NCBI GenBank assembly: GCA_010093815.1
Contig: ML996582.1
DNA: 35,932 nucleotides
Origin: Pseudovirgaria hyperparasitica
Taxonomy: Eukaryota
Direction: 5' to 3' (one strand)
Positions within the stretch are counted from its first letter, which is position 1. Each line of letters starts with the position of its first letter. This document shows, piece by piece, positions 1-30,422 of this stretch. The position numbers were made by a program, and so were the translations under genes. A model generated the notes under the pieces. It worked only from the letters and a program-made list of their open reading frames with translations. It was not told the DNA's origin and did no database searches.

Positions 1-369
1 GCGCGTCGTTTCCAAGGCGGCAAACCCGAGTCAAAGTGCATCTATGCGAGTCAGTGGCGTCGCGCTTGGGATGGGAAACGTGGGAAACGATGTCTAGATA
101 GGAAAAGACAATCTGCATGTCATTGTTAGCGCTCATTGGACTTCGATGGGTGGAATAATAGTACTTGCTAACATAGCAATAACAGAGCGATCTTATTACA
201 TGGCCGTGGGTCTAGGTCCACAACGCCATGGCGAGTAGGTCTGCGGGAATTCATGTGTCAGACATCAGATGAATCCTAATCCGTGGCCTCTGGTGGTAGA
301 GGCCGTTCTACACGGCTCAAGAACCGGGCCTGCCGATAGTAAGGTGTATACTTATGGTTAGCTCCGCTT

Positions 370-860
370 ATATGATAGTATATCTCGAATAGTAATAGCT
401 CAAGTATAATAGTATTTATTCTTTATATAGTATATTTATATTTATTAAAAAAATCTTATATCTAATAGATTATCTATGTTTAGTAATTCTATTTATTACT
501 ATTTTTTATATATTACTACTATAAATAGAATAGAATATTAAAAAGTATAAAAGAAAGTATCTCTTAAATACTATTATTTATAATAATTAGTATTATAGTA
601 AATATATATAAAATAGTTACTCTAGATATTATATAAATATAAACTCTATTATCTATAGATATTCTTAAATTATAAATAACTCTATTTTATAAGTATTATA
701 AGTAGCTTATTTATATTCTAATTCTACTAGTATAGTTAACTAATATACTTTTATAACTAGAATTAATATAGATATCTCTAGAATTATAGAAAGATACTAA
801 GCTAATTAATATCTAATACTTAGCTTATATAACTACTCTTTATTATGTAAAATTCCTATG
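370..860. repeat. AT-rich RIP-degraded relic (probable remnant of a repeat/transposon or duplicated gene)
   Basis: Abrupt switch to very AT-rich sequence saturated in TpA (tata, ctag, taa/tag) with CpA and TpG almost absent between about 420 and 840. This is the dinucleotide signature of repeat-induced point mutation in Pezizomycotina. Edges are graded; no TIR or LTR recognised. Confidence 0.8.
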
Positions 861-2052
861 ATAAAAATAGCTTTGACTTCTCCTTGTTCTAACCAGAGCG
901 AGCCTACTGTATTTAAGGGAACTGATCCGAGTGAATACGACAGGGTTCTGAATCCGGAAGAGGCTGGGGGCTCATGGAAAAACACTGTCAAAGCGTGGGT
1001 AAATATAACTAACGAACAAGCGCAGATGGAGTTGAAGTAGTATGTATGTACCTAGGAACAAGGGAGGGAGACGTCAATGGCGCGCGGGAGCATAAGTGGA
1101 CTGGGACCTGCCTTCCCGGATCTGCCAAGCTATTTCCGGCTTGCGTTCCTTCCCTGACCATTGGCTTAGACAGACGCCCTCTGCTCCGGAGCACACTGCC
1201 ATCTGCAGCCTGTCTTATCCTGTCTTGTCCGCCGACTCACCCCCGCTCCTTGTTTTATTTGCTCTTACGAACAGAGTACTTGCAACTCATGCAGTCAGTG
1301 TACAAGCTTTACTGGTCTCGTTCCTACAGGCTACCTGTCGTAGGGCTCTTCTGGGCACCGTGTCGTCGGGCCGAAGGAGGGGGGGGGAGGGGGGCTAATA
1401 AGCTTTCAGAATCCACTGGACCCGCAGAAATATGCATGTACAGGTGTGAGCGGAGATGTTGATGCTGATATGTATCAGCTTTGTATATGAGTACGAGTGT
1501 CGACACCTTCTTCCATGGCTGGTCATGTTTCAGCAGTCTGTGTGTTCTCAGGGCTATTAGTCTCTTGGAGACACCAGGGCGATCGTAGCGCTACTTGTTG
1601 ATTTCGAGGCAGCGAGTCATCCTGGCTAGGCCCGAGCCGGCCGGTTTGCGTGCTCCAAACCGTACTAAAACGGCATCAGAATAGCGTCTTGGTGGTCCAA
1701 CCATAGATCTGTACTGCCCGACGGGGAAGGTTGTCCACCCGCGTAGTCGGCCGTCCCCTGCTCAGCGCACTTGTGCGTGTCTCATGCGGCAGTTGAAGGA
1801 TCCAAGTAGTTGAAGGAAAAGCTGGTGATACATTTACACCATCCCGACTGTCTGGTCAGCCCTGGGCTTTCTTTCGAGGTCCAGGGGAGGTGAGCAAGCC
1901 CAGGCTTCGTACATATTTGTGCGGACTTGCTGTCTCTCTTGTTTAAAATTATTGCTCTTCGACAGTCCATCTCCTACTCAATCTTTCTGTCATCACTCAT
2001 TGTACAAAGCTGAACATACGAACTATCATCATCTAGTGATTACCCCATCATC

Positions 2053-2381
2053 ATGTGTGATTATACACAAGTCCATTACAAGTGTCAACATCTGCGGTAT
2101 ATAGTTCGCGCCTGGTGTACACGATATCAAGAGACCCACGTAAGATGTCCGGTAAACGTGGTGGCTGTGTAAGTACAAGCACGCCATATATGACTTCATG
2201 ACAGCTAATGACTTTCCAGAGAACATCGACTCACTGAAAATTGTGGTGAGTGGAGATCAATCCCCTGCTTTTGTCTTGGCGCGATCTGTCGACAACTAAA
2301 AAGACTAAATTTCGAACCACAGGCGACTGCCGAGGCACGACGACATCAACACATCTGCGTTCTGGACGACTCTCGATATGA
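2053..2381 (+). CDS. Small (66 aa) Cys/His-rich intracellular protein, 3 exons, putative Zn-binding; uncharacterised
   Basis: Exons 2053-2168, 2220-2245, 2323-2381. Intron 1 is 2169-2219 (GTAAGT...GCTAAT...CAG); intron 2 is 2246-2322 (GTGAGT...ACTAAA...CAG). Spliced frame reads MCDYTQVHYKCQHLRYIVRAWCTRYQETHVRCPVNVVAVEHRLTENCGDCRGTTTSTHLRSGRLSI*; the CxxC forms only across the second junction. ATG context ATCATG. Confidence 0.8.
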
Positions 2382-3986
2382 CTGACCCATAAGCATCGGA
2401 GCGGTGAAGTCACGGTTCAAAGGCGCCGGCGGAAAACTTCTTGTCAGCTCTATAGAAGGCGTTGTAAGCATGTGTATGTGGTTGATCTGGCTCTGTTTGT
2501 TGAGCGAACAAAGAGAATGGCGTTGGTCATGGCGTTCAAAAGCATCATTATTCACCAAACGTTAGATTTAGTATGAGGGCTGGGTTGAACATTGGCTTGG
2601 TAACATATCGAGACTCGACGAACTGGCGGCACTAGGACAAGTACAAACTAGTGCCAGTGGTACTACTAGGTCAAGTGTTGATAGAGTACATGCTGGCTGA
2701 AGCTCGGACAGCTAATCACATACAGTATCTGCATACTAGTGTACTGTATATTGGATTGAGTATGATGATGAGTGACAATATTGAGAATGAGCTGCAACTC
2801 GGCATGTCTAGCAACAAGATTAATCTCCCCGTCTTCCCATGCGGTTTTGGCCTCGGGACAGGTTCATGGATGTTCCCATGCGTACTGCAAGCTCAACGGC
2901 AAATCCCTACGACTATAGTCACTATCTGAACTACACAACGCTTGCCAACCCCCTAGGGTAAGAATTCGTTAGACTTGGATGTCCCTAGGGAAATGACGCA
3001 GTGCGCAGAGACAGCTGTTATTAGTTTACAAGCACGGCATTTAGCTATGCCAAAAGGCGCGTGTTTCAAAGAATGTCTTTCGATCTGGGTACTGTTACTG
3101 TTCCGTGGACCGAGCCGCATGGTTGGGATATCGGTGTCCCTTTGTTCCGCTTGTGTCGCGTGAGACGCTCCATAGAGAGCGGAACCGCTGTTACAGGCAT
3201 ACACCAGGTGAGGGACTAGGTTTGCTTGTGATACCTATCAGCCCCTTCCCCGAGGAATCGGAACCCAAAGACCTCGAAGAAATGTAGGAAGCTCATTTCG
3301 GCTCATCTCTGCCAAGGTCTCCAAGGTGAGGGAACAAGGCCAGGCCCATGAAAGTGGCTCATATGAAGACCCATCTCTAAAATCTCATCTACAGTGTATC
3401 GTAAACTAAAGAGAGGGGTTTGATTGTAGTCCTAAGCAGCATCGATACATATGCTCAGAATTCTCATGTACGTGCATGAGAGAAGAGGCTGTTCTTCAGG
3501 TATGTGATCATCCATTTGTCATGGACAGACAGGTCAAGAGAAGTTCACAACCAATCCTGGAAGCAACGATGTACAAGAAGCGCGTATATACAGACGTATG
3601 TTGGGGTGTCTTCTTGGCCCCTGAGAACGAACACTTCAGGCCGCTTTATGCCCTGTTTAAGTACTATTCTTGGTAAGACTTGGAGCGGGAACCATCCCTT
3701 GTCATGCAAAGTGCACATCCTGTTCCTGTCGTCTGATAGAGTACTGCATCAGATGGCGCAACCGCGGAAGGATTATATCCCCGCGATGGCGCGCAATGGA
3801 AAGGGACCGGGCAGGATTCTTGAGTGCATTCGGGGACATTTTGATTTGTTTCTTTCCTTTTGGAATCCCGAAAGTCACATGATACATGCCGTGGACTCCG
3901 ATATCGTACTACATACTACACGCACGCAAATAATCACCATTGACCCTGGCCCAGACACCTTTCACGTCCGACCTGTACGCTGAAAC

Positions 3987-5430
3987 ATGAGTCGCGACAC
4001 CAGCACAACAGCTCTCGATACATACGCCGTCCTTGTGACCGGAGCCAACAGGTAAGTTACGCCTTCAGTGCAGTCACCGCAAGAACCACAGTCGACGACT
4101 CGGACAAGCTGACGTCTACAGTGGAGTTGGCTTCGCCATCTGCTGCCGCCTCATTGATGAATACCTACAAAGAAACCTCCCCCATCTTGTAGCGACGAGA
4201 TTCGTCCTCATAGTCACGACCCGCAACCAGCGCAAAGGCAGCGACACCTCCCAGAAGCTTCGTCAACACATTAACAATTTATGTGCGAAAGAAGAGAGAC
4301 GATTCCCTGGCATCACGGAATTATGGCAACCAAGGGTCGAGGTTAGGGCAGAAATTCTGGACCTGACTTCAATTGTGTCCGTACAAGGCCTAGCTGAGAA
4401 AATGCTATCAGACAGAAGTACTACTGGCCTGCAAAAGTTAGATGCAATAATATGTAATGCTGGGATCGGTGGTTGGACTGGTGTCAATTACCCCAAGGCC
4501 ATATGGAACATACTGACCAATTGGGTGGACTCTGTCTCTTACCCTTCTTTCAAGACTGCTGGAATTGGATGGGTTACCCGATCACAGGTTGTCTCGGAAG
4601 AGTCTCGGGGACAAAAGTCATCTCCATTGAAGGTTGATACTGAACCTCCCCTTGGCGAAGTCTTCTGTGCAAACGTGTTCGGTCATTACTTGCTTGGCTA
4701 TTACCTCGGACCTCTTCTGTCGACGCCATCTAGACATCATCCGGCTCGAATCATCTGGATGTCAAGTCTGGAAGCATATGCTGATCAATTCCACCTTGAA
4801 GACTTCCAAGGTCTGAAAACGAAGTGGGCTTACGAATCATCTAAAAGATTGACAGATGTCTTGGCGCTCACGTCCGAAATGCCATCTGTTTCTCGCTGGA
4901 TTGATAGCTACACAAGCTCGCCTAACGCTTCACAGACAATGTCTAAAGCTGATTCACGAACCACGCGGCCATGTCTTGTTCGTCCTAAGCAGTACCTCGC
5001 TCACCCAGGAATATGCGCGACTGGTATTCTGCCAGTGCCTTGGTGGCTCGAATGGGCCATGACACTGGCACTCCACGCCGCACGCTGGATGGGCTCTCCG
5101 TGGCATCCAGTCGTTGCCTATCTCGGAGCCGTTGCTCCTGTCTGGCTAGCTATGGCATCTGCCACCAGCCTTGAGGCTATGGAGGAGACAGAAGGGAAAG
5201 GCAAATGGGGCAGTGGAACAGACCCAAATGGTAGCGAATGTGTACGGCGCATGTGGGTTCATGGCTGGGGCTGGGGTGGCAAAGAACAGGAAAAGGTGCT
5301 GCCAGGGAGACGTAAGGGTACCGAATATGCCACGGCGCAAGACAGAGAGGCTTTTGAAGAACTAGGCATCGCATGCTGGAAAGAGATGGAGGCATTGCGA
5401 CAAGAGTGGCACCGGCTTTTGTTCGAATGA
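3987..5430 (+). CDS. ERG27: 3-keto-steroid (3-ketosterol) reductase, SDR family, about 457 aa, 2 exons
   Basis: Exons 3987-4051 and 4122-5430; intron 4052-4121 (GTAAGT...GCTGAC...CAG). Splicing builds the Rossmann motif VLVTGANSGVGFAICCRLIDE. Downstream motifs NAGIG, LGEVFCANVFGHY, WMSSLEA and catalytic YESSK are typical of Erg27. The ORF-track entry 4375..5430 is N-terminally truncated. Confidence 0.93.
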
Positions 5431-5849
5431 CTATTCCAAAGAACGCCGAGAATGTTGTACAGCACCTTTTTTTAATCTGCTTTGCTGTGATACCCAATCT
5501 ATCGAGCCTACATCAATGTTCAGTGTTATATTCAAGGTAGAAATTAGAGACAATGGCAAGCGATTCTTCAAAGGGGAGAATAAATATCCACAGTCTAGAG
5601 GGTGACCTTGCATGTTGTGTGATCATACCAACATACTGACTGGGGCTTATATGCAGATGGAGGCGTTGATCAGGCTGATCATCCTTCTCACCCGCAGCCG
5701 TTGAAGCCCACGTGCTGACATTTTCTGAAAAAATGAGCCCCATGACTTTGTAGGTTCGTTGAGTATTCAGTCCGGCACATTATGAATGACAAAGACACCT
5801 GAGTCACTGTATCATGGCTCTTAACTTTATGGTCACCCTGCCAGGACTC

Positions 5850-7980
5850 TGAGTTTCAGACATCTGTCGATGTCGCGCTATTAAGTTTTTTTTTCAGCAT
5901 ACAGGGTAGAAGGACCGCAAAGCTCGAGGCCGGGTTGCTAACAATAATGACATTCAGGACCATATCGTCCATGCCCGAAACGGCATTCCGTTTCCGAAAT
6001 GGGCCTGGAAAGGGCTGGAACCGACGGCGACAGGGCTATACTGACGTGCAGCTGCAGATCCATCCCGGCGGCCTTTTTACTACGATCCCTCTACTCCTGG
6101 AACCCAGGACACGTACGTATTTGCAGACATTTTGTCCTTTCGTAGTGGTCGTATCATCGTCTCCAACGCCATACTGCAATCCATGCGTCTCACACCACGT
6201 CAGTAGAGAAGCATCAACATCAACGTTCGAGGCAAAATATTACAGCCACGGCCCTGGTCGCCTATGCAGTATACTACTATGTATGTACTATGTAATGTAC
6301 CATCACGCCATGCAGCATGCCGTCTGGCGCTCCACGGAGTCCACGCCCATCGTATGGGCGAAAGTGCCGTGACTGCAGGGGAACCCATGCCGGAAGAGTA
6401 CGCCGGAGCTCCCAACGCTCCCGAGACCTTGGATTTTTTTGGACGACACTTGCATGACACCAAAGAAGTTCCGATTGTCGATCAGACCCAGAGGAGCCAC
6501 CCCTCCTCTGTCGTCCTCTTCGCCCGCTCAAATGTCGGTGTAAACGTCAACCATACGGCGGGCTGGAATTCGCAAGCTTACTTTTGTTGTCTTAGTTGGA
6601 GCCATGCGATCGGACTGGACTGGCCTTGGTGGAGTTGTGCTAATGTAGCTTGCAGACTCAACAACTCGCGTGTCGAAGCTACCTTGATAACCCTATTAGC
6701 CATGGATGGATCCTAATTCGCGACTCGGAAAACACGCCGGACCATACAGAGCACAACTATACACACTTGCCCATACACTTCAAACACTTCAAACACGGTA
6801 CCTCAGACACAGTACACCATATATATACTAACACACAAACGCCATACAAAATACGCCGTACACAGTTTGCAAGGAATTGATATCTCCGGTGTGAGCGACA
6901 TACACGAACACAATCATCGAGTTAAGACAGCAACTTGATACATCACCAATCCCTGCAGTCTCCACACAAGCCAAGCAATGTAAAATTACTAAAAACATAC
7001 CTTCCCTGGCTTCGCCCACCCCGTCGATCGAGAGCTCCTTGAGAGCATTAGGATGATACGTACGTACTATGTACGCGTCCACCATGATCACAGACAAAGA
7101 AGTCGCTAATTTTAAACGCCGACGTCGCACAAGCGGGCCCCCACGCCTCCACCACCCCCTCTCTTTCTTACGCACATAACATACAATCCATACATACATG
7201 ATGATAGACTTGATAGTACGCATATCTTCTCCACACATACCGTACCCTTTTCGGAATACGGAACACCCATTTCTGTGGATCTTGATGCGCGCCCTTTCCC
7301 CCCTCCCCCCTCTCCACTAAAAAGAAAATCCTCCTCCCCCACTTGATATTCACTTTGCATTGCGCTATGCATCACATCAACATGTCCTCCCATCTGACTA
7401 CCACCACTACTAGTAGTAGTTACAAGACTCCATTTCGTTAATCTCATTCCACTTCTACGGTATTGTCGTCCCTCCATCTACCCTTGTCTTCCCCTCCGGC
7501 TTACCTACCTAACCGGTCCAGGACCTTACTTACTCCTCGCCGGGCTCAGCAAAGGACAGACACTAAAGACAGCGCTCGTACTCGGGACTCACTGGTGGGA
7601 ACATAGACTTGTTTATCTTCCTTGTCGTTTTTAAGTGGGCGAGTCCAGCGCGCCGCGCCGTTCGCGCCGTTCCCAGTGAGACCCGCTCGAAATAAACCTC
7701 AGCTACGCTCGCGTGGGAGACAGTCACTATCTTCATTCGAGCTAGTCGAAGTAGGGCCTAGTGATAGAGAGACGACCTTACCGGATTGGGACAGGAGAAG
7801 ATCGGGAGTGAGCAACTTTACGGGGGCGTTGTGAATAGTGATACGTTGACATGTGAGGTGCGACGTGCGAGGTTCACTAGACTATGGCGATTGAAGTGTA
7901 TACATTTTGTCAAAACAAGTATGAATATAATAAGAAGATGGTGGTAGCAAGATAGTCATGACTTGCGGATAATAAGATAT
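5850..7980 (+). ncRNA. Candidate long structured non-coding RNA (telomerase RNA hypothesis); boundaries approximate
   Basis: No credible CDS in a 2.6-kb convergent gap; several perfect hairpins; G-U wobbles favour the + strand; TAACCCTA at 6688-6695 lies immediately 3' of a helix. Pseudoknot and P6.1 were not convincingly identified. Confidence 0.25.
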
Positions 7981-8065
7981 GACTTCACTCATATTTTGAC
8001 AGCTAATCATCGCCTGCATAATTTCATTGCCAATAACTCTCCGTCTTCATGATCCCCGATCATGC

Positions 8066-11000
8066 TTATGATTTTGCGCTCCACTTCTCGTTAAACGCAT
8101 TTACTGCTACGGCAACCTGTCCGTAGAACCAATTTCTACTTCCTTCGTCCTGGACCGGTATGAATGGCCCGTTCGTTCCCCCTTTCAACGATATGCTGAT
8201 CCCCGTTCTTTCTTTGCTGATAGTAGCGACATCTTTGAGCGGCACATCCCATTCGGTCGTCAGCTTCTTTGTGCGGACTAGTAGGATGGTATTATATGTC
8301 AGCATGACAAGCATATCTGCATTGCCTGAAGGTCCACGACGAGCTGGTGACTGTGGCAACTGCGCTGACTGGCTTGGAGATAACGACGATCCGAGCTCAA
8401 GATGAGCGACATAATCTTCATTGAACCACTTGCCGTTGTCCAAGGTCTTCAGCCAGAACTGTCCAAGAGCTTCACGCTGAGAGTATGGACGGACAACCCC
8501 ATCGCGCCCGATAAAGCGTGTGAGACGCACACGATCAAGACCTTCTTGATCAAAGACCGTCGTTGTGTTCCGTACGCCTTCGGCCATGTTGCTAGCAAGG
8601 TCAAAAGCACCGATAGCAGGTTTCGTCGCTAGGCCGAGCACACCTTTCCCTACACCTTTCATGAAGCCGGCTACGCCCTCCTTCTCTGCTCCCTGAATAG
8701 GGTGTCGAGCTAAGCCACCAATACCAGATGCAAGCGATGACGCAAAGGCATTTCCTCCGGAGGTGATTCCGTAAAGGGCATGCTTTGGTCGGTTGCGTGA
8801 ACGGCTCATGCGACGCTGGTCTTGGAATTCCTTGTCCATAGACGCGGCGCTGAGACCCTTGGAAATTGATCCTGTGAACTTGGCCATACTGTCCGAGAAC
8901 CCAAATACACTCTTCTTCACGAAGCTACTTGCTCCCTTAGCAATACCAATACCAAGCTCTTGCGGCCTATCAGTCATAACTAGTCCCTGATATGGTTCGT
9001 AAAAGATGTCCGCCACACCCGATGAGATATTGTTGAACAAGCCGACAGGGTTACCGAGGAAGTCGGCGGATCCCAGGACAATATGAACTTGTCGCAGTGA
9101 TTCTTGTACGTAATGCGACCGGACATTCGAGATCAGCGCCGTCATCGATACGCGAGCATTTTCGAGCATGAGTGCGTTGTAGCGTACCGGTGCATCGTTG
9201 ACATTACCAATAGACATCGTCAATACATTGACTGCGAACATGAAAGGGTTGGACGATGTTGCAGTGTCCTCAGCATTGATGCGCTCCGTTCTTACAAACG
9301 ACAAGTCGAATTGCATGGGTTGAAGGTGAAGTAGTTCGAAGTAGACATCCTGTCCCGACTGTTCTTGTTGGGGTTCAGGCAATTCTAGCCGCTCATCACA
9401 AAGCTTGCCTTGTTTCTCTTCTGACCACGAGGCTCCTGGGATCTTAGTGAAATCGAGGAGGGCAAAGATAAAGTCCTCGTCAATCTCCAAGGTCATTTGC
9501 TGAAGGAGGATGGTGAAGTACTTAATGTATATCACGCCATATGAATCATCCTTGACTCTGGAGAGCGTCGCGTGCAGAATTGGATGCGCCTCCATTTCTC
9601 GACCGGTCTTGGGTACAACACTAGGATAGAAGAGGATTGGAAAGATTCCACCATAGAGTTGATTGTCAATCTGCATCCACTTGATTGTGAGACCTAAAGT
9701 CTGAAAAAGTGCCGATTCCGAGTATTTGAGCTCGATGTCCCGAAGAGTAAGATAGACAAGCTCGCGCAGCTGAGCATTGACCAAAGACACGCCGATACCT
9801 GCGAGTCGCAAAGTGGCTTTGAAGGTCACATCTGTGTCCTGCTCCTTGACTTCGAAGCCTGAAGTTGTCGATTGAGAAGCAGATGCGCTCTTCTGTTTGT
9901 ACAAACTCTTTGAAGGCTTATAAGTGGACAGGATGAGCGTCTGGGTTGGGCCGTCGGCAATTACGTTGAGATCAATGACTTTCTGTCTGTTGACCTCGGG
10001 TGTAGGAGGTAGCCTCATTGGTATCAGGTTACCAATCTCAGCGAGTCTGACGTGCCTTTCCCTTCCATTAGCAGTGAGGATTATCTCTTTGTTCTTCGCT
10101 GCAGGATGATCCCAAGCGTATGGCATGACACTTCTAGGAGGAAGTCTGTACCGGATTGGTCGCCACCCGGAACCACGATCCTCCTCATCTTCATCAACAT
10201 TTGGATTTGCTTGGTAGAATAAGAACTCTGTGTCACTCTCGTTCCGCATTGAGAAAGGCCAGTGCTTCGTCTCAATGCTCAGCTGTAAAAATATGGTCGC
10301 TCCTTCCATCAGAATGTCCACACGGACAAGTTGTTGACGTTTACCGTTTTTGGCTAGTTTGACGTGAACATTGCCAACATTAGCAATATCGAATGCTGAA
10401 GACCACTGATTGCTCACTCCTGGGAAGCATAGTGAGAGTTGTTGGCCTACACTCTGTCGCAGATATCTAAGGGGCTGGAGCTGACCAGATCTGAGTGTCA
10501 TGATGTTTGAGGACCCAGGTTCTCGTATGCTGATATCCTCTTTCATGCGATTCTTCACGATAAAGCGAGGAGCAATTGTAACAACCTTGCATAGGTTATA
10601 CTTTCCTTCGCCTTCTGCAACATTAATGCCTATGTGCATCTCGGAACAGCCATTGCCAGAAGTCAGCGACACATCGTATGCACTTCCGATGGCATCAAAG
10701 CTCTGTGGTTTGCTCCATTGAGAATCGCCAACCTTGAGCAAAGCACGATTCTTCTTGTCGTCCGTTGGAAAAGAGAACATGAACGGATGTGCTTTCTGTG
10801 CGTCTTCATCCTCTTCTTGAACAAATACTGCTTGTCCTGCAGCAGCCTTAGCTTGGCCCATGAATTGTTTGCTGCGAACATCCAGTTCAAGCCCAGTGCG
10901 ATTTAGTATGACGTAAGGGCTGTAAATTGTGACTTTGAAGGCACCGCCGCTATCAGGAATCTTGTAGTAGTGAAGGCTGAGTCTTAGACTGAGGTCTTTG

Positions 11001-14000
11001 TCGTCCTTAACCTCGATTGTCTTTTCCCGCCTGAAATCGTCCTTCCCAGATGAGTTTATGACTGCAAACTTGCTTTGTTTAAATGGTGTGTCTTGCATAT
11101 AAACGTTGATTAGCAAGAGGTGCGAGAGCTCTACTACATGGACGGGGCTAACACCGCCATTTCGGAGGAAGTTGGCCCAGTCTTTCTTCGTATTGTCATC
11201 GTAGATGCGGTATTTGAAATCGTATGGAAGTAGGTTCTGGACTTCTACGGGAGCATGTAGGCGAATTCGCATGTACGGATAAATACTGTTTCATGTCAGC
11301 TTCATCTTTCGATGAAAGTAGTGAAGCATACCTTGTGAGGGGGTCTCTTTTGTCGAATTGCGCATATGACTGGAAAAAGAATGGAGGGCTACTTTGATCA
11401 GAATCTCCTTTGCAAGTGATTGTCCTGTTGGGCCGCTTCAACGAGTCTTGCCAGAACAGTCTTTCGTTACTCCAAGCATATCCGAAACCTTGGTCAGGTC
11501 TTATTATGATACTATGCATATAAGCAGCGCCAACAGGGGCTGGCCTTGCATCGCCTGGCGCAATTTTCTCAATTTTGAGAATATGTCCTTCTTCGGGGTT
11601 GTAGATGCCGATCTCGATAGGGATCTGAGTGTTGTTCTCCACAAGGAGTGGCGATCTGAATGTAATGTATTTGACGTTGTCCGTTCCGAGCTTGACCTCT
11701 ACCAAGAGGCGATGTTGCACACGATCTTTACGAGGTTTCAAATTATAAAGATTTTCACCTTCACGGCTAACTTGAATGCGCGTGACGCTGTCGAATCCAC
11801 TACCTTCAAGCTTGACACCAAGTATACCCAGAGCCCCTTCTGGCGACAGTGTTTCTCTCGTAGTCGTAGGATCTTCAAAGCGCCAGGGTCTTTCTTCGCC
11901 ATCGTCAAGCTTGGCTGCCGGGCCCTCCTCGTTGTCTTTGCTATCTGCCCACACATTGATGTCAAAACCAGTATAGTTTCTGATTCGGTATGGTGCATCC
12001 ATGCCTCGGGGTTTCGAAAGGACATCTTCTTCTGTCGAAAGGAAATCCGCGGATTTGCTCGCAAGAGCTATAGTAGCCGTTGTGATAGACAGCTCCAGGG
12101 CTTTACGGGAGAACAGCTCCACGCCAAGCTTGTCAGGGCTCTGTTCCTTAGACATGTGGAAACCCACAGACCATGGCTCTATCAACGGTTCCCAGGCTGA
12201 TTTTGAGAAGTTGTAGATATTAAAAAGCGTGTCAATATTGGTGTCCGCAGTCATAGCTGCAGACCAGTCTCGGACATCTACATTGAACTTGTGGACCCGC
12301 CAATCCAGCATTGGCAACTCATGCGCGTCGCCAATGAGGACAACTCGCAAGCCCTCGAACGAAACTTTCATTTCCTCGCGCTTCATTACCGTAGAAGCCT
12401 TCTGCTGTTTAGTGGTAATTGCAGAAACTCGGTCTGTCTTCTTGCCGGTCTTGATGGAAGTCGCAGATTTCCCTCTAGCATGCGTAGATGTTGCCTTCTT
12501 ATGACTTGACTTCGATCTACTAGTAGAGTCATTGGCTTTGACTTGTTTCAAATTTTTCGGTCCATCATCCACCGTTTGTTGGTCCGGGGTCTGCATAGCA
12601 GAAGCACGATTGAATATCTGCATAGCCAGTAAAATGTCTCGCAGTGATAGTCGCAAAATGAGAGGTTCGACATCGACGTGAATACTCGTGAGCGAAGAAT
12701 CCTCCCCTTGCGAACGCATATCTAGGGAGGTCGTAACACTAAAATCATCGAGGATCCTAAGCCTTGTGGAGTCGAATTTGTCCATGCGACATAAGAACAT
12801 ACCAACCTTTTCAACCTGAAGAGTGGTAGAGTTCTGTTTCGAGACCAATACTTGCTTAGTGCCCAGTACGATAGCCTCGGAATTGTTGATCGCCGGATTA
12901 GCAAGGAGGATGATCTGCGCATCCACTAAGTTGACACGGAAAGAGATAGTCATTCCGTCTGGTTCTTTTTCGTCTCGGGTCTCCGCTTTGCCGTCTTTCT
13001 TGATGGAGGAGAGGGCGCCCGACTGTACGCTGACGGTACTCTCACTTTCTATATCCTCATCCTGGTCCTCAATGTGGAGGATATCGTCCGTCATCAAGCC
13101 TGCGCTCACAAAGCCCTGAAGAGCAAAGAGATAGTCAAGAGCGAGAATGACACGAGGACTATCGATCGTCAAAATTGCTATGAGATGTTTGTCCTCATTC
13201 CCTGAAATGGACAAGCTGGCCATGAACTGTTGCTTCACTTCTGTGTTGGTCAAAGACATAATCTTACGGAATTTATTCGTTGTCTGAGAGCGACTGTCGC
13301 GGATCGAGAAAGACTGGATCAGGAGTTCAGCCTCCAGGGAACCATCACTCATCATCCGCGTCTTGATGTTCGTGTCACTGAGCGAGAACTTAGAAAGACT
13401 GGCACTCTCGAGATCGCCCACAGGCTCTACCGTCCTGGCTTGTATAAGCTCTAAACCAACGGCACCAATCTTGAAAATAAGATCAAGCTTTGCCCATTTG
13501 TCTTCCTCGCTCTTGCCTAATTCAGATACCTGTTTCGTTGTAATGTTTTTAGACTTCGGTGTGGTCTCTTCATATTCTGCGATTCGACGCGAAGGGCGCA
13601 ACGCGGATTCTTCCAGCTCGTCCATAGCCTGACCTTCCAGCTCTTCTGCTGGCTCTGTAGCGAAAGCTTCTGGGATAGACCTCGAGAGCTCGAGAGCAAG
13701 TTTCAATTGTTCTTGAGTGAGACGCAAATTAATATCAGACATATTTCCTTCAATCTCCACATCTGGGCGCTTGTATCCTTGTTTATGCTCAACCAATGTG
13801 ATATTAAAGTCAAGATTCACTTTGTCAATGAGCTCAAGTTCTTCCACTTGATCATTGTCGTAGTGCAAATTCGACGTCAGCTTAATGTTGCGCACGCCAG
13901 CTGTCAACTTGTTCGCAAAGTCGGACATCTTTGAGTCGTCTAGAGGGACAAATTTATTGTTTGCATATATCTCACCAAGGTTCGCCGTCAATGTATCTCT

Positions 14001-17000
14001 TTCAGGTTTCTCAGTGATGACCATACGTGGAAAGACGACGATAGGCGTTCGGATTATAATATCGAAGTGCATCTTACCAGCACTTTCTTGAATCTGGTTT
14101 GCCTGATTTGCCGCAGCCTGGCGTGCTGCATTAAAGATGGCTTGCATCTTGCCGAATTTGACACCGAACTCCATAATTTTTCGGAAAGGCTCTGTCAAGA
14201 AGTTAACCTTTAATGAGCCGGACCTTAGATATATTGACGAGTCATAACCAGGGTAGTTGTCCGTGTTTGCATCGAACGTCTCGTATGAGAAGTCAGCGAG
14301 CTCTTTGCCCTGAATCGTAACCAGCTGGCGTAGTGACGACTGTTCAGAAACCCCCTGATTGACATCGTCAATCAGCGAAAGGTTGCCAAGCTTAGCATCG
14401 ACGCGCATAGCTTTTCCTGCCAGGAAGACTCCAACATCCGCAGCATTGAGACTGAGTGTAGCTAGCCGAATGCCGTCATTATTCAGTATCAATGCTATTC
14501 TCTTGAGTCTAGCTTTGATGCGGATCTTGTCAGGTTCTTGTGATTCAGGTCCCTTCTTGTCTTCCTTCATTGGGCCGTCTGGCGAGTCCTCCACAGATTT
14601 GTCCTGAGCTACGAGACTGGAGTTCGTGAACGTGACAAGGACAAAGTCTAAGAGAGTCAAGAGCGTTTTTCGAGTTACAATTAGATTGATCGTCGATACC
14701 ATGACGTCTAGATTCATTGCCACACCCTGGTATAACTCATTAAATTCTGGTGAGTCTTCGTTGACTCTAATGAACTTTAGCTGAAACAGATCCTTTTGGA
14801 GGGCCGTATCAGTATCCTCTGAGGAAATGAGATTTCTAAACTCAGGCAACGGGTTTTCTTCGACATGATCCTGTACCGCAAGAGTCTTAAGACTAACTTC
14901 TGCGACCATACTGAACTCTTCTTGGTAGAAGTCTAAGTTAAAGCCTTGCGCAACTAGTTCCACGAGAAGCTCGTCAGGCTTCTTACCGTCAGGGTCGGAT
15001 CGATAGAGAGAACCTTGTAACTTGTCGACAGTGAATTTGAATTCAAAGTTACGTTGATGAATGTTTCTTTCCGGAGCAGCCTTCTTGTCTGAAGCATCTT
15101 GAAAATCATCCTGCTCAGATTCGCTTCCTTCTTCACCGACTAGAATCTCCTTTCTCTGCGAGGTCTTGGTGAAAGACTTTGCACGAGTCCTACCTACCGA
15201 TGACCCGTTGCGTTCTCTAATTTCAATCAGAGGATCAAGGTTCGATGGTCCTGTGGTCTCGTTCTGCAACTGCTTAACATTTTCATTCTCGTCGAACCTA
15301 GGAATTGCAACATCAATGAGGCGCATCAAGCTTTTGTACTTTGAATCCGAGACTGAGGCATGGAGAACCGGTAGATTACCGGAGATGCGAAATTTAGTCA
15401 AGTCCGCTGCCCTTTGGATGATGCAGGTCTCGATTGTGAAATCCATATTAATACGGTCAACGAGGTGTAGACTCTTTGAAGTTGATTTTTCATCAAGTTG
15501 TGACTTTGTTTCCTCAATCGAGGTGCCGATCAGAACCTGAGTTGATTCAAGCTTCAGTATGAACTTGTCGTACATAAGACCTTCAAGTTGTTTGAAGTCT
15601 GCCTCCGTATACTGCTTGCTATGTTTGTTCTGAATATCTCGAATGGTCGATTTATCGACGAGGTCGCTACTGACGCTCACATGACCTGCATCTATGATTA
15701 GACAGATAGTACTGCTGTCCGTCACCGAGTCTGGTATGATAATAAGAGGAGCTTGTAGATCGAGCTGCGTGTTGATAGTCTTATGTTCTTCAAGAGCAAA
15801 CTCTAATCCGGCACGAGTCTGCTGCCGAATGCCTTCCACGGTAGCACCCGCGGTCTCCATTAGAGCACCAATCGACTCCATGTGACGCTCAGGGGGTTTG
15901 AAGAATTTGGCGACTTCGGCGATGAATTTAGGATTGTAGACAATCTCCATGCCCTTTAATCTCACGTTTAGCGCAGTATCGGCGCTTCCGTCTAGCGGGT
16001 TCTTCTCGAATGCAACTTGGAAGAACGGATCGCCGTCCTCAGCTCTGTCGTCTTCATCATGATCTCCCTTCAATCGTGGTTCCGTCTCATCATCGTTCAA
16101 TTCTCGAATCCGATCCTCATCAGCGACAGGAGCGACACCTTTGACGATGATTATCTGCTCAAACAGACTTCCATCAGTCGTACCGTCGTATAAGCGCATA
16201 CCATCAAGGCTCAATTCTATCAACATAGAATCCGTGCGCTGTAATGCTTTTGTGCTGAAATTATCAAATAAGAGTCGTAGTATGTTGTTGGGCTTGCCAC
16301 ATCTACCATGTGGATCCCGTCTAAGAGTGAAACTTCCTGTCCGCAAACTCATCTCGACTTGCATTTTCACGTATTCTCTCGGCATATCAATAGCGTCCGA
16401 CAGCTGCTGCTGTTCATCCCAATCAATCGCATCGTACAGCTTTTTGCGATCCTCTTCTGTGATATCTGTCTCTTCCTCTTGATTCTGTGGTTTACTACCC
16501 CATATCCACGCACCCCAGGACTGGGTTTCCTTATGTTTGGGCACACCGATATTCTCTTTGCGAAGCTGGTTCCGGGCTAGCGAGCGCCAGAACCGGAGGT
16601 CTTCATAAGATAACTTGCGTTCAAGTGCATCCATTTCCTTTGCTTCATCGGGTGTGAGCTTCTCCTCCTTCTTTTTCTTTTTGAAAAGGGCAATATAGCG
16701 GAGTCGGTCATCTCTCCTTTCCCGGAAATAATCCCAAGACCACTTCCGGTTGCGGTCATGGATTTTGTCCAAGACAGCTTTTCCAGCGAATTGTAGCCAT
16801 GCGAGTGGATCTTCTGCCGGTCTTGATTTGGGTTCAAACTTCTTGTACTCTTGATGTCTGATGAAGTAGTGAAAGAGCTCAACTAACATCAGCGCATCGC
16901 GGTATTGATCCTCGTCGATAATGAAACCGAGTTCGTCAAACAACAATCGCGCCTTTACTTTCGGCTTACCAGGCTTCCCAGTCTTATCTATCTCAAGTCC

Positions 17001-17819
17001 AGCACGACCGCTGACAGGCTTGAGGATAAATTGATGTTCTGCGAGATCTGGGCTGTCGCCTCGTACAATCATCTGTTTCGCCTTCTTGATAAATTCTTCT
17101 CTATCTAGCCCTTGCTCTTCATCTCTGATCTGCTCTCCTTTTCCAGTACCCATAAGAGATGCATCAGTATCCCAATATACCGCGAGGGAGCCCAATGTTG
17201 CAAGTTTATGAGACGAAGCTGAACTACCTTGAATGAACGTAGGTTTCCAGTCCCCATCAGTGCTGACAGCGCTAAATTCTTCAAGAGTGATACCGAGAGC
17301 GAATGCGTGGCCAGGATGAGATATTGCGTCTTCGTATCTGATGTGGATGTTCTTAACGCTGACTTGTAAATTGTCAACGATTGTGGTGACCAAGCTTGCA
17401 GTGAAGCTCTGGTTCTTCTTTTGCTCCTCTGCGCTCATGCCTTCCGTATTTCTCTCTTTCAGGAGTTCAGCAGAATCAAGCTTCTCCATCTTGACAGCAT
17501 GTGCTCTGGTCTCTTCCTCTTCTGCATCGTATTCTGCATCCTCTTTTGGTGCTGCCAGTAGGAAAACATCCTCTATACTGACATGCACTGGGCTTCCTCT
17601 GAGATTCGACCAGGGTATTCGGAGTGTGAGTTGGCCAAGATGGCCTTGGACTACGTTGAGGGGTAGATGAAGTTGGTCGAGAGCTTCTCGTCGCAGTTCC
17701 AGATTTCGAAGCTTCACATCTCCAGACCATATTCCGACATTGAGTTGTTTAGGATCAAAATTCTTGACATACATGCCAAGAAACCTGTTTAGCAGGTTCG
17801 CGACTAGGCCCTCGAGCAT
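8066..17819 (-). CDS. VPS13: Vacuolar protein sorting 13, bridge-like lipid transfer protein, about 3235 aa, 2 exons
   Basis: Chorein N-terminus MLEGLVANLLNRFLGMYVKNFDPKQLNVGIWSGDVKL; C-terminal region HIVLGSADFLGNPVGLF...GVGKGVLGLATKP and PH-like end. Exons 17819-11332 and 11285-8066; a 46-nt intron at 11331-11286 (GTATGC...GCTGAC...CAG) joins the 2207-aa and 1068-aa ORFs in frame (DPLTS/IYPYMRIRL). Confidence 0.97.
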
Positions 17820-18466: not shown

Positions 18467-18982
18467 ATGGGCTGGTGGTGGCGCTCCGACCCAGAAGCAC
18501 CTATCAAGCCCTCAAATCACAGCGCACTCGCCGCAGCATGCGAAGTCGCCGACATGACCAGCCCCAACGTATCCACACTGCGACAACAGCCCGACCTCCT
18601 CCCTACCCAACCCGATGTACCAAACCGCAGTCCCCCTGACAGCTCGCTTTATCCATCCACGATGTCCTGTCGCGATGCATTCGACGCCGCGTACTACTGT
18701 GCGTCATTCGGAGGCAAGTTCAACGACATATACCGCTACGGCGAGCTGCGGTCGTGTAGCGAGCACTGGGGCCAATGGCGGTTTTGTATGCGACTGAAAG
18801 TGCTGCAGCCACAAGAGAGAGAGCAGCGGGTCAGGGAATTCTACAGAGAGAAAGAGGCGCATACGAGGGTTGGGAGAAATAGCGAAGAGGTGTGGAAGAG
18901 GAGGACGGATATACCCGAGAGGTACATGTGGAAGAATCCGGATACGATGGAGCCGATTGAGGGGTTGGAGGAGAAAGCTTGA
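18467..18982 (+). CDS. EMI1: Early meiotic induction protein 1-like, twin CX9C protein (171 aa)
   Basis: MSCRDAFDAAYYCASFGGKFNDIYRYGELRSCSEHWGQWRFC contains two CX9C motifs and the YRYG signature, followed by NSEEVWKRR; N-terminal MGWWW. Single exon. Confidence 0.85.
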   Translation: MGWWWRSDPEAPIKPSNHSALAAACEVADMTSPNVSTLRQQPDLLPTQPDVPNRSPPDSSLYPSTMSCRDAFDAAYYCASFGGKFNDIYRYGELRSCSEHWGQWRFCMRLKVLQPQEREQRVREFYREKEAHTRVGRNSEEVWKRRTDIPERYMWKNPDTMEPIEGLEEKA

Positions 18983-19692: not shown

Positions 19693-21710
19693 TTAGTCGA
19701 CCTCCTCGACGGTAGGACCATCATCGCCACCGCCAGGAGCGCCACCAGCACCGGCACCAGGGAATCCACCACCGGGCATACCACCACCAGGCATACCACC
19801 GGGCATACCACCCTCACCACCAGCGCCGTAGAACTTCATCATGATAGGGTTGGCAACACCTTCAAGCTCCTTCTGCTGGGACTCGTACTCGTCCTTGGTA
19901 GCTTGCTGATTGTCGTCAAGCCACTGGACAGTCTTGTCGATCTCAGCCTTAAGTTTCTCCTTATCACCAGCTTCAAGCTTCTCATCGACCTTGGAGTCAG
20001 AGAGGGTATTCCTCAAACTGTATGCGTAAGACTCGAGGGCGTTCTTCGCAGAAATGCGGGAAGCTTCAGCCTCATCTTCAGCTTTGTACTTCTCGGCCTC
20101 GGCCAACATCCTCTCGATGTCCTCCTTGGATAGACGACCCTTGTCATTGGTGATGACGATCTTATTAGTCTTGCCGGTACCCTTTTCGAGAGCAGAGACG
20201 TTCATGATACCGTTGGCATCAACGTCAAACGTAACCTCGATTTGGGGTACACCACGGGGGGCAGGCGGAATGCCAGAGAGTTCGAACTTTCCAAGGAGAT
20301 TGTTATCCTTCGTGCGGGCACGCTCACCTTCATAGACTTGGATAAGCACGCCAGGCTGGTTATCGGAGAAGGTAGAGAACACTTCGGATTTCTTCGTTGG
20401 GATGGTCGTGTTGCGCTTGATCAGAGCAGTCATCACTCCTCCGGCGGTTTCGATACCAACGGAAAGAGGAGCAACGTCGAGCAACAAAATCTCATTAGTT
20501 GACTTGGAAGAGGTGTCACCGGAGAGGATAGCAGCTTGTACAGCGGCACCGTAGGCAACGGCTTCGTCGGGGTTGATGGACTTATTTGGCTCCTTGCCGT
20601 TGAAGAAATCGGACACCATCTTCTGAACCTTGGGGATACGAGTAGAGCCACCGACGAGAACAATTTCGTGGACGGAGGACTTGTCAATCTTCGCGTCGCG
20701 GAGGACACGCTCGACTGGCTCCATGGTGGACCGGAAAAGATCCTGGCACAGCTCTTCAAAGCGGGCACGAGTTATAGACGTGTAGAAGTCAATGCCCTCG
20801 AACAGCGAATCGATTTCAATTGAGGTCTGAGCTGATGAGGAGAGGGTACGCTTAGCACGCTCGCAGGCGGTGCGAAGTCGTCGAAGGGCGCGCGCATTGG
20901 AAGTTAGATCCTTCTTGTGCTTTCGCTGTATTGTGAATTAGCGACCTGACCTAAATCAATGGTTGCGGGGTTGCTTACCTTGAAATCGGCAACGAAGTGG
21001 TTTACAAGTCTGTTGTCAAAGTCCTCACCACCTAAGTGAGTATCGCCAGCGGTAGACTTGACCTCGAAAATTCCCTCCTCAATGCTAAGCAGTGACACAT
21101 CGAAGGTGCCACCACCTAGGTCAAAAATGAGGACATTTCGTTCTCCGGTCTGTTTCTTATCAAGACCGTAGGCGATGGCGGCTGCGGTGGGCTCGTTGAT
21201 GATACGGAGGACGTTCAGTCCTGAGATGAGTCCGGCATCCTTGGTAGCTTGACGTTGAGAATCGTTGAAGTAAGCTGGAACTGTAACAACAGCGTTGTTG
21301 ACGGTACAACCCAGGTAAGATTCAGCGGTTTCGCGCATCTTGGTAAGAATCATCGACGAGATTTCCTCGGGGGTGAATGTCTTCTCCTCGCCCTTGAACT
21401 CGACACCGATGACTGGCTTGCCACCTTTATCGAGGACCTTGAAGGGAAAATGCTTCATGTCGGCCTGAACCTCAGGGTCGGCAAACTTGCGTCCGATAAG
21501 ACGCTTGGCGTCAAAGACTGTGTTTGAAGGGTTCATAGCGACTTGATTCTTGGCAGAGTCACCAATCAGACGCTCGGTATCTGTGAAGGCGACGAAGGAC
21601 GGGGTTGTTCTGTTTCCCTGATCGTTGGCGATGATCTCAATGCGGTCATCTCTGAAGATGCCTACGCAAGAGTAGGTTGTTCCCAAATCAATACCGATCG
21701 CGGGAGCCAT
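19693..21710 (-). CDS. HSP70: Cytosolic heat shock protein 70 (Ssa-type), about 654 aa, 2 exons
   Basis: [21 protein letters not shown] and [11 protein letters not shown] signatures; GGMP repeats and terminal GPTVEEVD indicate the cytosolic class. Exons 21710-20979 and 20925-19693; intron 20978-20926 (GTAAGC...GCTAAT...CAG) gives [23 protein letters not shown]. Confidence 0.98.
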
Positions 21711-24495: not shown

Positions 24496-26956
24496 ATGGA
24501 CACCAGTGGTCTGCGTGACCCTTTCGCCATTCAAGGAGCCTCAAGTGAGCCTAAAGGCCTCGGCGTCTCCATGTCTCCCTCTTCCAACTACGGTCTTACT
24601 TCTCCCGAGATCGATGGCTCCGGATTCCAAGCTCTCGATCCTCGCTTGACATATTCGTCGTTCGCTCCCCCCACCAACGTCATGATCAACGACGTGAAGA
24701 ATGGCCTCGGGGATGCCACGAGTGCAGCCCAAAGAGAGAGAGCACGCAGCTCTGCGCTGTTAAACGTCAATGATCCTGTTTCACTGCATCTACTGGTAGA
24801 GACAGCGATGGGCGACAGTCAAGATTACGAAATCTTATCCTATGAGGAAGTGGATACCATAAAGACAGAACTACGAGACCTCCAGCCGCGCATCGAGGCT
24901 ACATCGAGGAAACTAGCCATGGAATCTAAAGTTCGCGATGCTGCACAGTCTCTCGGTCGCCTGCACAAAAAGCAAGATGCAATTCAGAGCTCTCCTAAGC
25001 GCAACAGAAGAAGTATGAGCAATCGGTCAAGCACCAGCGGTGTAAAGTCAAATAGCGAGTGGAAGGGCGATAGTGAATTGGCTACCAGTATCAAAAAGTG
25101 CGACAATCTTTCTCAGGAACTTTGGCATCTTGAGTCAAGATGCCGCCTACTACAGACCCAACTTCTGAAGCACACTGCCGGCATCCTGCAAATGACACAC
25201 GCTGGGCCAACCAAGAAGGAGGCTATGCGATCTCCCGCGGTAGGGACGGCAAACAATGGCAGACCAGATAGCCCACAGAGCATCTATAACTATGACACGT
25301 CGCGGAAGAAGAACTCCAATCAGTTCGAGGACACATTCGACGAACGTAGCCTGTATCGATCACCCGAAAATCTGGATCACCTCATGCTTGCTTTGAAGAA
25401 TGGAACTCATCACACCCACATTGACGAATTCAACGACGGATTGGCGAGTAATCAGGCGCTCGTATCTGTAGAACAGCGGCTGGAGGATCTAAACAACCGT
25501 ATGCGAGACCTTATCGTGAAAGCAAATCCAGATCGGAACAAGGACTATGCGTCCGTCCCAACAAGATCTGTCGAGCTGCAACTAGACTACCTCGACAAGG
25601 CTCTGGGTCATATTGGCGCTGAGAACAATGAACTTCAGAAACGATCGAGGCACTCGCAAAGTGAAGTCGAAGGTAGACTTGAAGAAGCGAACAATCAACT
25701 GTGCAGTGTCATAAACAATCTACGTTCTACTGATCTCGACCCCTACCCACCTCCACCCAGAATATCAGGACGCAACATGCAAGAACAAATAACCTACTTA
25801 CAAGAGGCTCTATTTGCTCTAGAACAGGCTACCATGAGCTCGCAATCTGGCCTCGGGCATGACGCTGCGCAGTACGAGGCAACACTGTCTGGTCTATGGT
25901 CAATAATCCTCGCTGGTGAAGAAGAGGCACGGCAAAGGAAGCGACAAAGACGACAGAACATTGCGGCAAACCCAGGCGGTTTTGAGCGGGAAGAAGATCT
26001 GTCTCCTGACGAGGACGGTAATACTGACGAAGCGTTCACGCTACAAGCCTTTTCGGCAAAGGTCCAGTGGCTTTATAGTCGAGCCTCGAATCTCAAGGAG
26101 CAGCAAAGTATACTCCGCCGACAGATTCGGCAGCAACGCGAACTCAATAACAAGACTGATGCGCAGACTGAGGAAAACACAGGCCAGCTCCACGCTCGTA
26201 TCGAAGACCTCGAATCCGAACTTACTCACATGCGTGACGACTCGCGAATAGAAGCATCCGAAATGCAAGCCAGTCTTCATGAGGCTTCAGAACGTATCGA
26301 GCAGTTGTCTGCTGACCTTCGTCAAGCTACCGACGACCGAGAGGCGAAAGACATGGAACTTCGTGATCTCGAGGGTGAGGTAGTGCGATTACAGACTGAA
26401 GTCACCATCGCTAGGGCAGACCTCGACGGCGCTTACGGAACTCGTGCTCAACGCGCAGCCGAAGTTGCCTCAAATCCTGAAATCAAGCGCGAGCTTGAGG
26501 AACTCAAGCAGAACGAGCGTGTGCTAAAAGAGGAACTCAAGGGCATGGCGGCCGAATACGAGGCCTTAACTCGCGACAGCATTCAGAATGAAAAGGACCG
26601 CGATGGCCTCGAAGCTCTTATCGACTCGCTGAGAAACGAGAAAGAGAGGTTGGAGCTCGATCTGAGTGACGAAAGGGTGCGATGGCTAGGCGCGCGCAGC
26701 CCAGGTGCTGGACCGACAGGGATCGAAATGACTAGTGTGAGGATGATGAGAGAAGACTTCAAGAAGATGATGAGGGAGAAGACTACGGAGGCTTTGAAAG
26801 CCTTGCGTGTAAGTTCATCCCCCGAAGCCACGTTCACCGCTAATCATTTGTCAGGCCGAACAAGAAGAACGACGAAAACTAGAAGCGCTCGTGCGCCAAC
26901 TACGAAAGGGCTCAGAACCTCCTAAATCAGGTCTCAGTCACAGCATGACCGCCTAA
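24496..26956 (+). CDS. Up-regulated-during-septation (Uds1) domain coiled-coil protein, about 804 aa, 2 exons
   Basis: LLNVNDPVSLHLLVETAMGDSQDYEILSYEEVD...KVRDAAQSLGRL...LLKHTAGILQMTH resembles the fungal Uds1 domain; long heptad-rich C-terminus. Exons 24496-26808 and 26855-26956; intron 26809-26854 (GTAAGT...GCTAAT...CAG) yields ALKALR/AEQEERRKLEALVRQLRK...SMTA*. Start codon uncertain. Confidence 0.82.
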
Positions 26957-29088: not shown

Positions 29089-30422
29089 ATGGCCACCCCT
29101 CAACCTAATCTGCATAAGCGACAAAAAGTAGACGTTACCTCACTACAAGGAAACAAGATAGCTTCCGATATAGGAGAGAGTGATTCGAAGAAGCTACGTG
29201 CTAGAAGATTCGATACAATCTACAAGAACTGGAACCTCACAGAAGAGAAATTGCAGAGCCACTTCGCAGAAGATGACGCATGCCAATCTTCACATGGTAC
29301 GCTCCTCAAACAAGTCAGAGACTGGCCGCAGAGATTTTTAGAGAAAATCGCCACGCTCTCTGGCAAGATCAGTGATATCTCCACGGCTAAGGCTTTACTA
29401 TGTCAGGAGAGGGCGATGCGACGTGTCTACGAACAAGCGAATGGACTATCCCAGTATGGTCGCTACAATGAGATAGGCTTTAAAACCTTAGAAGTTGAGC
29501 AAGTTTTGCTCAAATTGAAAAGAGCAGAAGCAATCGTTGCCGGAAATGATGGCCGGATGTGTTCAAACGACCCATGTGAAAATAAAGCTGCCCAACGGCC
29601 TTCAATCGTCCAATCGCCCGCGTTGCACGTTCGCGATAGCCCGAGATCGAAAGATATTGTAAGGATCAATGAGATACCGAGTCTAGGTTCTCCGGGTCTA
29701 CAAGAGACGCCAACGGCGCAAAACAACCCTACGAGCTTCTCGACTGCATATAACCCACAACAGTCCTTTGCTTTCAGCTCAGCATCAGCCTTGTTCCCTT
29801 CAGTACTACAATCATCAACGGATATTTCCAGCTTTCACAGTACTGGAGATAGCCGCTTCGAAGGGGAGGATGAGTTTTTGAGCATGGTCGACTTTGACGG
29901 CAATGCAAATCATCACATATATGACTCACAGGGTTGGCAGAGTGATACGCGTGGGTTCAAGCCGGTGCCGCAGTCTCAGAAAAACATGCTAGCCCTCCCT
30001 TCCCCCATTCGAACGACGACCCCAGGGCTTAACGCCAAGACCGGTCACCAACGAACGATGACCTACACGCCAACCTCGCAGCTACCAATTTAGAAGATTC
30101 TACTGATGACACAGCGATCAACAGGGTTTCGGCCGTAGAGCTCGCTCAGCATGCTATCGGGAATTCGTTCTTTCGGTCTACATCAATGGCGAAGCGCAAA
30201 CTTGAATCGATGCGCGATATGTTTGAGGATGGCGACTGTGACTTAACTGCAGACATGGACGCGTCAGAAATGCGTTCCATGATCGAATATTGTGCGGCAA
30301 TCGAGAGCTACGAACGTGGAAAGGAGGATAACAGGCCACGTTTGGTAAAACAGGCGAAGTCGCAAATGGCGAAACTTTGGCTTCGTGAGAGGTTGAGACT
30401 GGAACACGGGGTTGAGATGTGA
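29089..30422 (+). CDS. Hypothetical (orphan-like) protein, probably 2 exons, about 410 aa
   Basis: 334-aa ORF from 29089 plus a second frame open from 30033 to 30422. A phase-1 intron (donor GTTGGC 29933 or GTGGGT 29951; branch GCTTAAC about 30027; acceptor AAG 30039, alternative CAG 30114) joins them in frame. No family recognised. Confidence 0.55.

Follow-up and report, generated by a model that had tools for sequence, protein, structure and literature searches.

A spliced Cys/His microprotein gene of filamentous ascomycetes with a predicted zinc-binding, homodimeric fold

In a canonical treble clef, a knuckle supplies two of the zinc ligands and the N-terminal end of a helix the other two; metallothioneins have a very high Cys content, little regular structure and few aromatic residues. 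The elements of the treble clef follow in the order knuckle, loop, primary β-hairpin and helix (PMC4999995), and the zinc site of the CW, papillomavirus E7 and Ash2L type is a treble-clef-related variant (PMC4999995, PMC5795450). The dimer core of the Fur family is described, in excerpts of two reports, as a sheet joined through the last strand and carrying a structural Cys4-Zn site (PMC2691836, PMC8063818). For one-domain zinc-finger micro-proteins of Haloferax, excerpts of PMC6562870 report stress or lifestyle phenotypes in 12 of 16 deletions. Here, we analyse a gene for a 66-residue Cys/His microprotein at positions 2053..2381 of a 35,932-nucleotide stretch of contig ML996582.1 from Pseudovirgaria hyperparasitica (GenBank assembly GCA_010093815.1); this whole stretch is referred to as the window. 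An earlier note on the window had proposed a hidden three-exon frame, and our analysis confirms a real, spliced, protein-coding gene, whose product probably binds zinc at two sites.

Coding exon 1 (2053..2168, + strand; 116 nt) opens with the ATG at 2053 and encodes residues 1-39, among them C2, C11, H13, W21, C22, Y25, H29 and C32, as well as predicted strands 1-2, helix 1 and the start of strand 3. Intron 1 (2169..2219, +; 51 nt) is a phase 2 intron after nucleotide 116 of the coding sequence (CDS), with a GTAAGT donor and a standard branch site, GCTAAT, 15 nt ahead of its CAG. Exon 2 (2220..2245, +) is a micro-exon of 26 nt that specifies residues 39-48, including E40, R42 and C47 and the second half of the predicted dimer strand. 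Intron 2 (2246..2322, +; 77 nt, phase 1, after CDS nt 142; GTGAGT..CAG) splits the CxxC motif and has only a near-consensus branch, with no perfect CTRAY and the nearest CTAAA at 2305. Exon 3 (2323..2381, +) encodes residues 48-66 followed by TGA, and holds C50, the terminal helix and a variable basic, Ser/Thr-rich tail. The two donors are the two top-scoring GT sites of the region. The spliced frame of 201 nt yields a 66-residue, 7.8-kDa protein with Cys at 2, 11, 22, 32, 47 and 50 and His at 13, exactly the frame and spacing assembled in the earlier note. The gene is absent from the list of open reading frames because the unspliced frame ends after 39 codons. When exon 1 was kept fixed, the downstream DNA shuffled and any one- or two-intron model allowed, a CxxC near residue 47 arose in 5 of 500 cases. 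An in-frame stop at 2011-2013 lies 14 codons 5' of the ATG, and the protein therefore lacks an N-terminal extension; the open frame has just 52 codons, and no upstream ATG occurs in 1912-2052. Judged by hydropathy alone, there is no hydrophobic signal stretch (best 15-residue mean 0.51), as the note had likewise claimed in denying a signal peptide.

Two public runs contain this stretch, both from one sample of one study, and their kind is not on record as RNA. One contig per run (2 of 2) joins 2168 to 2220 and 2245 to 2323, skipping both GT..AG introns at the junctions proposed earlier, exactly and with no extra letters (compared over 1500-3000). The contigs span 1912-2730 (run X1) and 1957-2703 (run X2), with depths of 28 and 85 versus 2.6-5.4 for flanking contigs. 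The genome gives one significant match to the gene, indicating a single copy. From the exact GT..AG removal, the ends near the gene and the single genomic match, we infer that these are transcript contigs. They delimit a 5' untranslated region of at least 1912..2052 (+), counted from the start of the X1 contig since contigs do not fix true transcript starts, and a 3' untranslated region of 2382..2730 (+) with an approximate end (2730 in X1, 2703 in X2).

Homologues were readily found. Exon 1 alone matched 8 of 8 database candidates (E values 1e-16 to 5e-10), none of them identical to it. A profile search found 130 of 133 candidates to be homologous (120 of the 130 listed), a divergent profile recovered 86 homologues among 2011 candidates, and a library of 50% cluster representatives contained 319 at E<=0.001 (150 of them listed). 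The named sources, including Neurospora crassa and Botrytis cinerea, belong to Dothideomycetes, Leotiomycetes and Sordariomycetes, with one Eurotiales species (Eurotiomycetes). No yeast, basidiomycete or non-fungal name occurs among them; as the searches were seeded from close relatives, this range is a lower bound. Members include N. crassa EAA29502.1/Q7S297, Sordaria SMAC_05652, Chaetomium thermophilum CTHT_0010830, B. cinerea BCIN_05g02180, Zymoseptoria MYCGRDRAFT_39210 and Ascochyta M3J09_001668, and they occur in plant pathogens and equally in saprotrophs, root symbionts and thermophiles. Their labels are all 'hypothetical', 'uncharacterised', 'unnamed', 'predicted' or a bare identifier. 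Neither Pfam nor NCBIfam holds a model for the family, no Pfam domain is precomputed for the homologues, and a PDB sequence search gave no match. The group of small uncharacterised ascomycete Met-Cys proteins to which the note had likened the frame is thus recovered by homology searches, with near-fixed Cys and His.

Conservation is strongest in a 51-residue core (residues 1-51), over which the window protein is 80% identical to the closest full model and 51% to the N. crassa member. It follows the family pattern C2-x8-C11-x-H13-x7-W21-C22-x9-C32-x13/16-C47-x2-C50, counted from the initiator Met. From the first 120 homologues we left out 7 in which another intron had been read through, giving an insertion. 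The remaining 113 show no exception at C2, C11, R15, W21 or Y25, one each at H13, C22 and C32 (present in 112), and H29 in 97; the filter for this set demanded C32, or C22 with R31, and those columns are partly fixed by that choice. In a wider set, the N-terminal pattern was in register in 358 of 384 proteins. Among 248 distinct N-terminal 33-mers, picked for C2, C11, W21 and C22 in register, H13 is retained in 243, R15 in 239, Y25 in 238, C32 in 234 and H29 in 190 (Gln in 36). Met-Cys forms the protein start in 115 of 123 full-pattern proteins. Judging from these near-fixed columns, the seven ligands originally named are the right set, with H29 optional. The CxxC is in register in only 21 of the 113 database proteins, a set that includes intron-blind metagenome gene calls; in the others, divergence is found where introns lie, and the gene is therefore frequently mis-modelled in databases. 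The notion that annotation pipelines drop this gene holds only in part: many genomes do carry it as a 'hypothetical protein', though often mis-spliced.

The window gene shares its Met-Cys start, ligand spacing and W21/Y25 with this unnamed Pezizomycotina family, and its introns are common to related loci. It is an ordinary member; what is unexpected is the family as such, rather than this locus. A Trp-containing tail motif, frequent in Sordariomycete and Leotiomycete members (67 of 123 full models), is absent from it. Some genomes, of Thermothelomyces, Pyrenochaeta and Mytilinidion, hold two or more copies. Sordariales may have two paralogous groups, and the window genome shows one copy.

To place introns and selection, we used the best 80 of 133 metagenome loci plus the window, 81 in all. 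A model with 0-2 introns and the full Cys pattern could be built for 70 loci and for none of the other 11. The pattern was required of these models, hence their Cys conservation is by construction, and intron positions were free. Among the 70 loci (window included), introns fell after CDS nt 116 and 142 in 31, after 125 and 142 in 16 and after 64 and 142 in 7; single-intron models placed the intron at 125 in 13 and at 116 in 3. Overall, 34 loci have an intron after nt 116 and 54 after nt 142. The 116/142 pair yields the same 26-nt exon, which the window thus shares with 30 other loci, in agreement with the expectation that intron positions would be conserved. The modelled loci include near-duplicates and represent 48 distinct cores. 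For the 33 of 1128 pairs that were unsaturated (synonymous differences per site, pS, 0.1-0.6), the median ratio of nonsynonymous to synonymous rates (dN/dS) was 0.028 and the maximum 0.20, where the note had anticipated a value below 1. Nonsynonymous differences per site (pN) were below pS in all 47 pairs with the window gene, and variation of 0.14/0.09/0.48 per codon position fell mostly on third positions. The family is under very strong purifying selection. The tail after residue 51 is basic, variable in length (proteins of 55-90 residues) and not conserved in sequence. A purine stands at -3 of the ATG in 29 of 30 loci. Subgroups of homologues carry an intron after nt 64 (L019-L023, L063, L064) or nt 125 instead of 116, and the CxxC intron at nt 142 recurs across them, pointing to intron gain and loss in this tiny gene.

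Structure prediction, also proposed in the earlier note, gave a confident small fold for a close homologue. We used an AlphaFold model of P0010, which is 82% identical to the window protein over exon 1. Its predicted local distance difference test (pLDDT) is 87-93 over residues 1-50, and the five models score 82-84. The predicted fold is β-β-α-β-α, a three-stranded sheet plus two short helices over residues 1-55, with β1 at 2-9, β2 at 14-20, α1 at 23-28, β3 at 34-42 and α2 at 48-55. A fold search with this model returned no significant PDB match. The hairpin register sets C2 opposite C22 (2+22 = 11+13), and the predicted secondary structure puts C11/H13 at the hairpin turn and C47/C50 at the start of a helix. 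Conservation, hairpin register and fold model together suggest putative zinc binding, probably at two sites. Site A would be formed by C11 and H13 together with C47 and C50. At the opposite end of the sheet, C2, C22 and C32 would form site B together with a fourth ligand that the sequence does not fix; in most members this may be H29, and in the others solvent or the N-terminus of Cys2, freed by the loss of Met. A homodimer model with zinc scored 0.38, compared to 0.01 for the best of 3 controls, and its runs agreed in 100% of contacts with a pLDDT of at least 84. As a yardstick, 21 of 30 solved microbial pairs and none of 23 microbial single chains attained a mark of 0.32; the eukaryotic counts were 17 of 29 and 0 of 30, respectively. 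The model supports, but does not show, a homodimer formed via antiparallel β3 strands (residues 36-45) in one extended sheet. Retention of intron 1 leads to an immediate stop (2169-2172) and a 39-residue product that has the site B ligands and lacks C47 and C50; many homologue gene calls stop at the same place. Intron retention could be a putative splice-controlled off switch.

In the literature searched, no main text named the orthologues by their identifiers. Supplement rows of PMC6405687 give 855-1647 raw reads for the B. cinerea orthologue Bcin05g02180 in three 'IV' samples, taken as in vitro from the sheet names, and fruit-versus-IV log2 fold changes of -0.23 (adjusted P value 0.85), +0.04 (0.97) and -1.44 (2.7e-4). 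The gene is marked 'up' in the constant-light network excerpted from PMC8637145 (log2 fold change 1.71, adjusted P value 3.8e-9). The missing fruit induction and the light response therefore argue against an infection effector and offer a weak lead towards light-linked development.

With slightly better than even confidence, we regard the protein as an intracellular, zinc-stabilised, probably homodimeric adaptor that contacts a conserved partner through conserved residues other than the ligands. Zinc would hold the fold of this microprotein, and two copies would pair via their β3 strands to give an extended sheet. T5, R15, W21, Y25, T28, R31, E40 and R42 would then form the contacts to this conserved partner in the cell, which is most likely a protein. 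The protein would serve as an adaptor or as a regulatory subunit, without enzymatic activity, and would act in a process confined to filamentous ascomycetes, perhaps development linked to light; the tail beyond residue 51 would be dispensable or accessory. Several points weigh against this reading. The models are those of a homologue and not of the window's own spliced protein, and with 25 sequences one of five models was confident. The dimer score is barely over the mark, the dimer job included zinc and the calibration did not, the mark was attained by only 1 of the 7 eukaryotic pairs that lack an older solved relative, and such models pair edge strands easily. At site B, only three ligands are fixed, the RNA evidence comes from a single sample whose kind is not recorded, and the light response is, in the excerpted data, that of one gene among 663 induced in one species (PMC8637145).

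The three-ligand site also feeds an unlikely but serious alternative, a metal or redox sensor or carrier. Here, site A would be structural and the three-Cys site open, exchangeable (Zn, Cu, Fe-S) or oxidised, which would switch the shape of the dimer, the binding of a partner or protein stability; metal is coupled to conformation in a similar way in the Fur/PerR core. The replacement of H29 in 58 of 248 sequences and the retention of the Met-Cys start are consistent with this, as are the Fur/PerR/Zur chains that recur among weak fold matches. Furthermore, strand and helix order and last-strand dimerisation match Fur-family cores as excerpted from PMC2691836, and the orthologue rises in constant light (PMC8637145, in part). 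A bolder form of the idea, which we consider distinctly doubtful, is an uncatalogued zinc-finger architecture: a stand-alone two-site dimer with a processed N-terminal Cys in a switchable site, i.e. a fungal counterpart of the Fur/PerR core without the DNA-binding domain, through which the state of light, oxidants or zinc would be signalled to a conserved partner in the development of filamentous ascomycetes.

It appears quite improbable that the Arg/aromatic face and basic tail sit on RNA or DNA as part of a small nucleic-acid-binding subunit of ribosome, spliceosome or chromatin, as core charge is near balance (7-8 basic, 5-7 acidic), expression is moderate and the tail sequence is not conserved. 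In addition, profile comparison with E. coli L31 gave 0.1%, and the PDB, which includes fungal ribosome structures, yielded no sequence match. A metallothionein-like metal sink without a fixed partner would fit a small, Cys/His-bearing protein without a signal peptide; we rejected this candidate as very improbable, given 6 Cys in 66 residues, a conserved Trp and Tyr, bulky non-ligand residues conserved like the ligands and a regular, ordered predicted fold. Equally remote is a disulfide-bonded small secreted protein, an effector or antimicrobial whose export needs no classical signal peptide. Its size, six Cys and presence in many plant pathogens speak for it, but the hydrophobic leader is missing, purifying selection is very strong, members are as common in saprotrophs, root symbionts and thermophiles, the CxH and CxxC half-sites are metal-type motifs, and the orthologue is not induced in fruit (PMC6405687, supplement rows). 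Finally, the contigs might reflect a chance frame, a non-coding RNA or an intronless DNA copy, since the run kind is not on record and the sample single. We give this practically no weight in view of the codon-position variation, a dN/dS of 0.03, the one significant genomic match, the purine at -3 and the lack of any Rfam match in window positions 1-6000.

Around the adaptor candidate, the downstream gene (3987-5430, +; intron near 4052-4121) begins ~1.25 kb beyond the end of the transcript contig. The earlier note had called it ERG27; a weak short-chain dehydrogenase/reductase match (NCBIfam E 5e-5) was obtained, Pfam and PDB gave none, and the name is not confirmed. None of 5 neighbour proteins matched any of the 80 homologous loci, many of which are short, and the position beside an ERG27-like gene appears incidental. 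Further genes lie at 8066-17819 (-), 18467-18982 (+), 19693-21710 (-), 24496-26925 (+) and 31376-33412 (+); Pfam identifies PANTS-like, Uds1/DUF7801 and V-ATPase subunit a proteins, and from their translations we take others to be VPS13-like and Hsp70. A 334-residue open reading frame at 29089-30093 (+) has no Pfam match. The nearest long open reading frame upstream of the window (positions 7546-8214, +, of the record L003; 222 residues) ends ~3.7 kb before the microprotein transcript and has no Pfam match at E 0.001; by eye, we take it to resemble a phosphatidylinositol-specific phospholipase C X-type domain. About 1.2 kb upstream of the gene, 400-870 is an AT-rich island (12-15% G+C, (CA+TG)/(AC+GT) 0.0-0.15, raised TpA/ApT), a signature suggesting a repeat relic mutated by repeat-induced point mutation. 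The 8-mer ATATGCAT at 1430-1437 is found in the upstream DNA of 9 of 30 homologous loci, against an expectation of 0.6 and at most 7 in shuffles, and is a possible, weak candidate for a shared promoter element.

The gene is strongly selected in four classes of filamentous ascomycetes, including the model N. crassa, industrial thermophiles and major crop pathogens, and no family model, solved structure or paper was found for it in the databases and literature searched. The corrected exon structure, the confidently predicted fold, for which the PDB gave no significant match, and the specific dimer model open it to direct tests, and the family may represent both a new zinc-finger architecture and a regulator peculiar to its lineage.

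How does this family compare with known systems? In the Fur/PerR/Zur dimer domain, a three-stranded sheet becomes six strands across the dimer via its last strand, a geometry that our predicted dimer would resemble, and weak fold matches spanning this domain recur at a root mean square deviation of 7-9 Å. Unlike Fur proteins, the window protein has no winged-helix DNA-binding domain, as its 66 residues, the upstream stop and the absence of an upstream ATG indicate. Pfam gave no FUR (PF01475) match and profile comparison with E. coli Fur/Zur only 0.3% probability; we regard the resemblance as an analogy, no sequence homology having been found. Similarly, the layout recalls an E7/CW-type zinc site by analogy, again with no sequence homology found. 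The knuckle is CxH in the window family versus CxxC in CW, E7 and Ash2L, and the cluster C2, C22, C32 is extra; these folds were absent from the listed fold matches, which does not exclude them. Moreover, a helix and a single strand, with no hairpin, are predicted between the knuckle hairpin and the final helix, which departs from the treble-clef order, and only one of 52 members matched a treble-clef Pfam model, weakly, at E 0.012. Comparable by description alone are the archaeal Haloferax micro-proteins, which excerpts of PMC6562870 likewise present as stand-alone chains of <70 residues with one Cys/His metal module. The ligand layout of the family thus differs from the canonical treble clef, and its kin in kind are the one-domain zinc microproteins.
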